Shown here piece after piece: positions 42,375-42,546 of a DNA stretch of 64,000 bases (the stretch's first letter is position 1; every line of letters begins with the position of its first letter). The position numbers and the translations under genes are program-made. The notes below the pieces were generated by a model. That model was given only the letters and a program-made list of their open reading frames with translations. It was not told the DNA's origin and searched no databases. The DNA is from a virus (taxonomy: Duplodnaviria > Caudoviricetes), in IMG/VR virus record IMGVR_UViG_3300014208_000024, positions 1-64,000 of that record; one strand, 5' to 3'.

Positions 42375-42451
42375 ACGTAACCAGGCTGCTCAACCACTAC
42401 CCTTGCTTTCTTCCGAACCTGGGGGAGTTCGTAGGAGCCTGCCTGTTACGC
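42375..42451 (-). ncRNA. ffs: Small (4.5S-type) SRP RNA
   Basis: Long hairpin CGTAAC/GTTACG, CAGGC/GCCTG, GCTC/GAGC with apical CAGG-TTC-GGAA-GAA-AGCA domain IV motif. Confidence 0.8.
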
Positions 42452-42519
42452 TTTATCTTAACTATATAAAGAACCTTTGTGAATGTAAATATTTAAAAAA
42501 ATCTTATTTACACACATCT

Positions 42520-42546
42520 ATACGGAAAAAATTTAAAAAGGTTACA
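42520..42546 (-). promoter_or_regulatory. TGTAAC-N16-CGTAT promoter of the SRP RNA
   Basis: Recurring motif. Confidence 0.65.

Follow-up and report, generated by a model that had tools for sequence, protein, structure and literature searches.

A shortened small SRP RNA gene with a Bacteroidia-like apical half in the genome of a giant groundwater phage

A giant phage from groundwater, with a genome of at least 372 kb, carries a gene for a shortened small (4.5S-type) SRP RNA, which is a member of the bacterial small SRP RNA family by the threshold of that family's own model. The gene lies on the minus strand of the window, by which we mean the whole stretch of DNA that was analysed, namely positions 1 to 64,000 of an IMG/VR virus record of 372,283 bp (~28% GC); the same strand also encodes all of the 35 tRNA genes of the window. 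In an Infernal search, the covariance model RF00169 (Bacteria_small_SRP) matches the gene end to end with 42.3 bits (E-value 9.8e-6 window-wide), which exceeds the curated gathering score of 40 bits by only 2.3 bits. The initial annotation, made from the sequence alone, had proposed a phage-encoded 4.5S SRP RNA, and this proposal is borne out by the RF00169 match, by compensatory changes across four phage-like contigs and by a promoter-like site belonging to the gene. It needs to be refined in that the RNA is a shortened, phage-specific variant, which is Bacteroidia-like only in its apical 51 nt and which passes RF00169 but fails the model of the donor lineage, RF04183 (Bacteroidales_small_SRP), with 33.8 bits against a threshold of 55.2 bits. 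We consider it rather probable that this is a working SRP RNA made by the phage and acting together with the Ffh protein of the host, in which case it would be transcribed, would bind Ffh and would have a positive role in protein targeting.

The 77-nt hairpin with the SRP domain IV signature that had been noted earlier was found at its place, the only correction being that it is encoded on the minus strand (Table 1). The signature pattern CAGGNNCGGAAGNNAGCA occurs once in the window and in none of 100 shuffled versions of it. Within the core, CAGG and AGCA constitute the 5' and 3' sides of the symmetric loop, UUC and GAA form the stem between them, and a GGAA tetraloop of the GNRA type closes domain IV. 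An identical 18-mer core with the UUC/GAA stem is present in at least 120 bacterial genomes from many phyla, and hence this version of the core is not a peculiarity of the phage. The symmetric and asymmetric loops of SRP RNA form the binding site for the Ffh M domain, and the letters of this site are present in the phage RNA, in which CAGG and AGCA are kept and the model positions A30 and A31 align with an A-A. At the distal loop, the RF00169 letters G14, A16 and U77-G78-C79 read C, G and U-G-G in the window, the closing pair is reversed and leads into a shorter helix, and the outermost host helix is absent, while a bulged G is retained where the model has its conserved U-G bulge and at the same distance from the loop, both here and in the homologue L244 (read by eye). 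The tetraloop of SRP RNA contacts the receptor in the early complex, and the distal end is the docking place of the GTPase pair and the trigger of GTP hydrolysis (PMC4737761). Judged by its letters, the phage RNA retains the tetraloop, the symmetric loop and the A-A of the asymmetric loop, with the distal end retained in part only. Since part of the conserved letters at the distal end has been lost, efficient activation of the GTPases at the distal end is uncertain.

Table 1. Positions of the SRP RNA gene, of neighbouring features in the window and of related RNAs in other sequences
Feature	Sequence	Position	Strand	Remarks
Small SRP (4.5S-type) RNA gene	window	42370..42453	-	RF00169, model positions 1-97
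Hairpin body, 77 nt	window	42375..42451	-	MFE -30.8 kcal/mol, z = -2.4; consensus fold of four homologues
Domain IV core CAGG-UUC-GGAA-GAA-AGCA (CAGGTTCGGAAGAAAGCA)	window	42404..42421	-	signature match
Promoter-like site TTTACA-17-TATAGT	window	42461..42489	-	sigma-70-type; consensus scan, 10/12; putative promoter
GTTCTTTA box ('boxA-like')	window	42467..42474	-	overlaps spacer and -10 of the promoter-like site; recurs at other units
A/T-rich spacer between SRP RNA and GOLLD	window	42246..42369	-	
GTTCTTTAAAATATT box of GOLLD	window	42261-42275	-	inside the spacer
GOLLD RNA	window	41517..42245	-	3' part 41517-41900 modelled by Rfam (RF02032, 226.6 bits); 5' part alignable to L005 to ~42245
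Intrinsic terminator-like hairpin ending the GOLLD unit	window	41480..41511	-	
Endonuclease VII-like gene	window	38372-39100	+	homing-endonuclease-like
HNH gene	window	44221-45027	+	homing-endonuclease-like
TnsA-like gene with NUMOD3	window	45409-46311	-	homing-endonuclease-like
Phage-type SRP RNA copy	L005, 229-kb viral contig			RF00169, 47.2 bits
Phage-type SRP RNA copy	L273, 2.7-kb ENA contig			RF00169, 39.8 bits; reached via a homologue of a neighbouring protein
Phage-type SRP RNA copy	L244, 1-kb metagenome contig			RF04183, 49.0 bits (vs 55.2); different context
SRP-like RNA	L014 (record G003, 497 kb)	8566-8658	+	RF00169, 57.7 bits; in or beside tRNA genes
SRP-like RNA	L056 (record G004, 372 kb)	520-612	+	RF00169, 57.7 bits; in or beside tRNA genes
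SRP-like RNA	L097 (record G005, 290 kb, classed as provirus)	1923-2018	-	RF00169, 58.7 bits; in or beside tRNA genes
Domain IV or shortened hairpin	L004	2268-2301	+	beside tRNAs; right after a GOLLD with an embedded tRNA
Domain IV or shortened hairpin	L035	4322-4349	+	beside tRNAs
Domain IV or shortened hairpin	L031	607-700	-	36.4 bits; beside tRNAs
Domain IV or shortened hairpin	L101	1663-1755	+	33.4 bits; beside tRNAs

Three further copies of the RNA were found in AT-rich phage-like DNA, namely in the contigs L005, L273 and L244. The gene order, with a neighbour gene followed by the SRP RNA and GOLLD, is common to the window and L005, and the short contig L273 extends across the neighbour gene and the SRP RNA and ends with a GTTCTTTA box and the start of GOLLD. 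In an alignment of the four phage-type copies, GGAA, CAGG and AGCA(A)GG are invariant, while covariation affects each of the three apical stem pairs (UUC/GAA, UCG/CGA and AUA/UAU), and L244 has a basal stem composed of different letters. The consensus fold has 23 pairs, with 98.9% of the cells paired. Seven of these pairs have changed on both sides, compared with 2.8 +/- 1.2 in shuffled alignments, of which 1 in 500 reaches seven, and with 0-1 in slid controls; on four of five measures the observed value was reached by at most 1 of 500 shuffles and on the fifth, the count of further pair types, by 25 of 500, all of these counts being based on four sequences and on a structure predicted from the same alignment. 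GGAA is fixed beside a freely covarying stem, although the GNRA class permits other letters, suggesting that the receptor step is under selection and not only the binding of Ffh. Between the window and L005, the DNA identity amounts to 88.6% for the SRP RNA, 79% for GOLLD, 69-75% for the flanking genes and 69% for the spacer, and the flanking proteins are 39-70% identical. By this comparison, the SRP RNA is the most conserved element of the region, and we regard it as a selected gene and not as host contamination. Matches of a pattern with a degenerate core in other viral and metagenome contigs were rejected, as they were mostly due to chance and located in coding DNA; those in L246-L248 are chance matches. 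No homologue was detected by BLAST in 50,697 GenBank phage records, the relatives identified through TerL were only short contigs without the SRP RNA region, and no exact-protein record was found for the L244 ORF.

The nearest cellular genes, ranked by flanking similarity, are all from Bacteroidales/Bacteroidia MAGs, and the Bacteroidia genomes possess a single SRP RNA gene each, with RF04183 scores of 92-106 bits. Over its apical 51 nt, the phage RNA reaches up to 92-95% identity with SRP RNAs from Bacteroidia, with a match that spans (C)CAGCUCC to GGUUGAGC and contains the apex UUCGGAAGAA. When 301 sampled Bacteroidia genomes were searched by BLAST, 149 gave a match, and all 149 were confined to query positions 18-68, none extending past 71. 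The basal helices of RF04183, GGGuaAGu...gCUuaCCC and cuacaCGgC...GcGCGAuguag, are replaced in the phage RNA by GCGUAACAGGC...GCCUGGUUACGU, a closing helix that differs from that of the host and is ~10 nt shorter per arm, and the RNA is ~20 nt shorter overall. It is this phage-specific, shortened basal stem that causes the RNA to fall below the RF04183 threshold. The host-type RNAs are ~100 nt long, with TAnnTTTG upstream and a U-run at the end, whereas the site preceding the phage RNA is of the sigma-70 type. In the phage RNA, a Bacteroidia-type apical half is therefore combined with a base specific to the phage; this points to a Bacteroidia host, and Bacteroidia is the probable host class. 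The TerL protein, compared with those of cultured phages, has its best E-values to Flavobacterium phages (2e-56) with ~30% identity and none above, which may be taken as a weak hint in the question of the host.

The initial annotation had also assigned the gene a promoter and a boxA-like motif. The former corresponds to the sigma-70-like site, from which a transcript would start ~3 nt ahead of the hairpin, and a matching TTTACA-N17 site, which ends in an identical GTTCTTTA box, is found in L005 (read by eye). The latter is a real, recurring box with letters that resemble boxA, and it may act as a boxA element, as part of the promoter or as a processing signal. A fuller 15-mer motif, given as GTTCTTTANNATANT / GTTCTTTAAAATATT, has 14 matches in the window where 1.9 are expected, most of them on the minus strand and ahead of GOLLD, other small-RNA and tRNA units. 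Example sites of GTTCTTTAAAATATT are located at 24140, 33742, 34817, 35139 and 42261 (-), and it is often placed right after a terminator or tRNA and ~20 nt ahead of a small RNA starting with GGUGGC. The copy at 4035 lies only ~13 nt before a tRNA-Gln gene, suggesting that the motif may not be a simple promoter. GOLLD is encoded on the same strand and starts ~125 nt downstream of the SRP RNA, which lies outside of it, as the Rfam match and the alignable 5' part of GOLLD are preceded by the spacer with GOLLD's own motif. In the freshwater metatranscriptome X2, two contigs of 190 and 207 nt cover GOLLD with one mismatch each, and none covers the SRP RNA. Short matches at 42398-42430 (X5-X7) continue into unlike sequence and were rejected as derived from the SRP RNAs of other organisms. 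In L005, the sister phage, a ~110-nt structured insert (5380-5470, minus strand), for which there was no Rfam match at gathering scores, separates the conserved TTTACA/GTTCTTTA site from the SRP RNA, and the SRP RNA of this contig may be produced within a longer precursor, as its second segment.

Three homing-endonuclease-like genes are scattered around the non-coding RNA island, and its other neighbours are unknown genes. ARAGORN calls a tRNA with the anticodon UUA, which would read the stop codon UAA, at 33634-33706 (-) within a block of Thr, His and Asn tRNA genes; the ORFs near it look normal under translation table 11.

For a protein partner, the phage would depend on its host. The Ffh M domain (SRP_SPB) has no match in the 372-kb record, beyond which a 456-kb assembly adds ~83 kb, and the SRP54 GTPase has no match above the cut-off in the same record. 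Five further viral records that carry SRP-like RNAs likewise gave no match to the M domain. As the phage record yielded no Ffh, the RNA would pair with host Ffh, and we hypothesize the following course of events. An RNA of ~80 nt would be produced, most likely from the promoter-like site of the gene, and would fold into a single hairpin, the apical half of which would reproduce the Ffh-binding and receptor-contacting end of the Bacteroidia SRP RNA, composed of the GGAA tetraloop, the CAGG/AGCA symmetric loop and the A-rich asymmetric loop. Through its unchanged domain IV, this RNA would bind host Ffh and form a hybrid SRP during infection, which would supplement or replace the 4.5S RNA of the host in co-translational membrane targeting. 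The initial annotation had suggested that the RNA could supplement or redirect targeting through host Ffh, or stand in for a host RNA lost to degradation in the infected cell.

It is also conceivable, although in our view unlikely, that the RNA works against the host pathway as an Ffh decoy or dominant-negative form. The shortened RNA would then bind host Ffh and might recruit FtsY at the tetraloop, and a poor distal GTPase-activation step would leave host targeting stalled or retimed to the advantage of the phage. Such a role would fit the end of the homology to host RNAs at the apical 51 nt, seen in all matching Bacteroidia genomes, the shorter basal stem without most of the conserved distal letters and the triggering of GTP hydrolysis at the distal end (PMC4737761). 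It would also fit the still shorter hairpins, comprising domain IV only, in the tRNA arrays of L004, L035, L031 and L101; between L031 and L101, a stem that reads GUC/GAC in one reads GAC/GUC in the other. However, the bulged G at the position of the U-G bulge has been kept in both the window and L244, and natural SRP RNAs of ~77-80 nt are functional in some bacteria, so that length alone is no sign of a defect. Full-length matches to RF00169 were obtained in the viral contigs L014, L056 and L097, whose records yielded no Ffh M domain either, and the L097 match may represent host DNA, since the record behind it is classed as a provirus. The dense tRNA array of L035, in addition to its mini SRP hairpin, holds a tmRNA fragment, and a sub-threshold match to RNase P class A is located at 7049-7289 (+) of this contig (46.4 bits vs 100, E-value 1.9e-11).

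Less probable again is that the gene is vestigial, that is, a captured host fragment that now acts only as a stable hairpin, for instance by terminating transcription of the small-RNA cassette or marking a site for its processing. The sequence 3' of the hairpin is indeed U-rich (UCUCUU in the window and CUUUUU in L005), the hairpin is located within a non-coding RNA cassette, and a separate SRP RNA transcript is something we infer. Yet a plain terminator requires no invariant GGAA, CAGG, AGCA and A-rich loop amid covarying pairs, and this element has a promoter-like site of its own and the strongest conservation in the region. An even smaller probability is attached to the idea that the hairpin acts together with GOLLD instead of SRP, the two being either joined in a single transcript or functional partners. 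The SRP RNA is directly upstream of GOLLD in the window and in L005 and ahead of the GOLLD start in L273, no distinct terminator was predicted between them in the window, and in L004 the mini SRP-like hairpin comes right after GOLLD. On the other hand, a separate GTTCTTTAAAATATT box precedes GOLLD in the window, conservation of the spacer is low and the SRP RNAs of other huge phages are in tRNA arrays, with no GOLLD in the loci scanned; a general link between GOLLD and SRP was rejected, as the GOLLD locus of a Streptococcus phage has no SRP-like hairpin within 2 kb.

That the gene stems from host contamination or a chimeric assembly, or is an attP remnant of integration into host ffs, is hardly credible: some temperate phages, for example phiEf11, do integrate into ffs (PMC12540744), and several viral contigs with strong RF00169 matches are probably prophage flanks, but the locus studied here has a full hairpin with a phage-specific base, flanks of ~28% GC that encode homing endonucleases and unknown proteins, and synteny in three phage contigs, and a search of the 372-kb record for a tyrosine integrase gave none, results that contradict an attP remnant. 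Moreover, 6.7 kb of the window around the SRP RNA are identical to positions 122452-129147 of a second assembly (L278; ENA ERZ27249449 k141_11612, 455,767 bp), and this mismatch-free agreement makes contamination or a chimera very unlikely. In view of this 456-kb contig, the 372-kb record, rated 100% complete by CheckV, is probably not the whole genome.

A bolder version of the proposal, to which we give a low probability, is that huge phages of Bacteroidia possess a mobile SRP-GOLLD cassette whose RNA would capture host Ffh and form a hybrid with altered receptor and GTPase timing, thereby reprogramming the targeting of membrane proteins in the infected cell instead of just sustaining it, with the domain-IV-only hairpins in the tRNA arrays of other phages as its minimal form. 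In two distant relatives, L275 (2197-4244) and L276 (1657-3704), a DUF6926 gene directly joins the homologue of window positions 42985-43680, and the absence of the GOLLD-SRP cassette at this place marks the cassette as variable cargo or a variable insertion.

Phages bring tRNAs, tmRNA and translation factors into the infected cell, and a phage SRP RNA would add co-translational membrane targeting, which is essential and seldom counted among phage targets, to the processes that viruses take over. As the RNA is small and has defined partners, Ffh and FtsY, for which assays are established, the question of whether it is a helper or a saboteur can be directly tested. The Bacteroidia-type apex also hints at the host of a huge phage that is uncultured, and the full-length, shortened and minimal SRP hairpins that occur naturally in phage genomes could, as a series, reveal which parts of the RNA serve which step.

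The literature searched, also for GOLLD together with SRP, yielded no report of an SRP RNA encoded by a phage. The phage RNA is best placed by comparison with known systems. With the bacterial small SRP RNA (4.5S, ffs; RF00169), it shares the single hairpin, the GGAA tetraloop, the CAGG/AGCA loop and the A-rich asymmetric loop, whereas it differs in being encoded by a phage in which no cognate Ffh was found, in its length of 77-84 nt, in its partly kept distal letters and in its marginal score. Its likeness to the Bacteroidales SRP RNA (RF04183; Bacteroidia MAGs behind L141 and L198) is confined to the apical 51 nt, and the two differ in the basal stem and its length per arm, in the low RF04183 score of the phage RNA and in the sigma-70-like site that precedes it. 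Similar to the tRNAs and tmRNA of huge or jumbo phages, it is a host-type stable RNA encoded in a non-coding island without its protein partner; in contrast to these, an SRP RNA serves protein targeting and not decoding or ribosome rescue. Finally, minimal domain IV fragments of SRP RNA are used in vitro as the binding site for the Ffh M domain, and it is exactly this part that is conserved in the phage RNA, with some viral contigs carrying only hairpins of ~40-45 nt. Unlike such fragments, however, the phage copies are natural genes, and the copy in the window adds a closing helix of ~15 bp.
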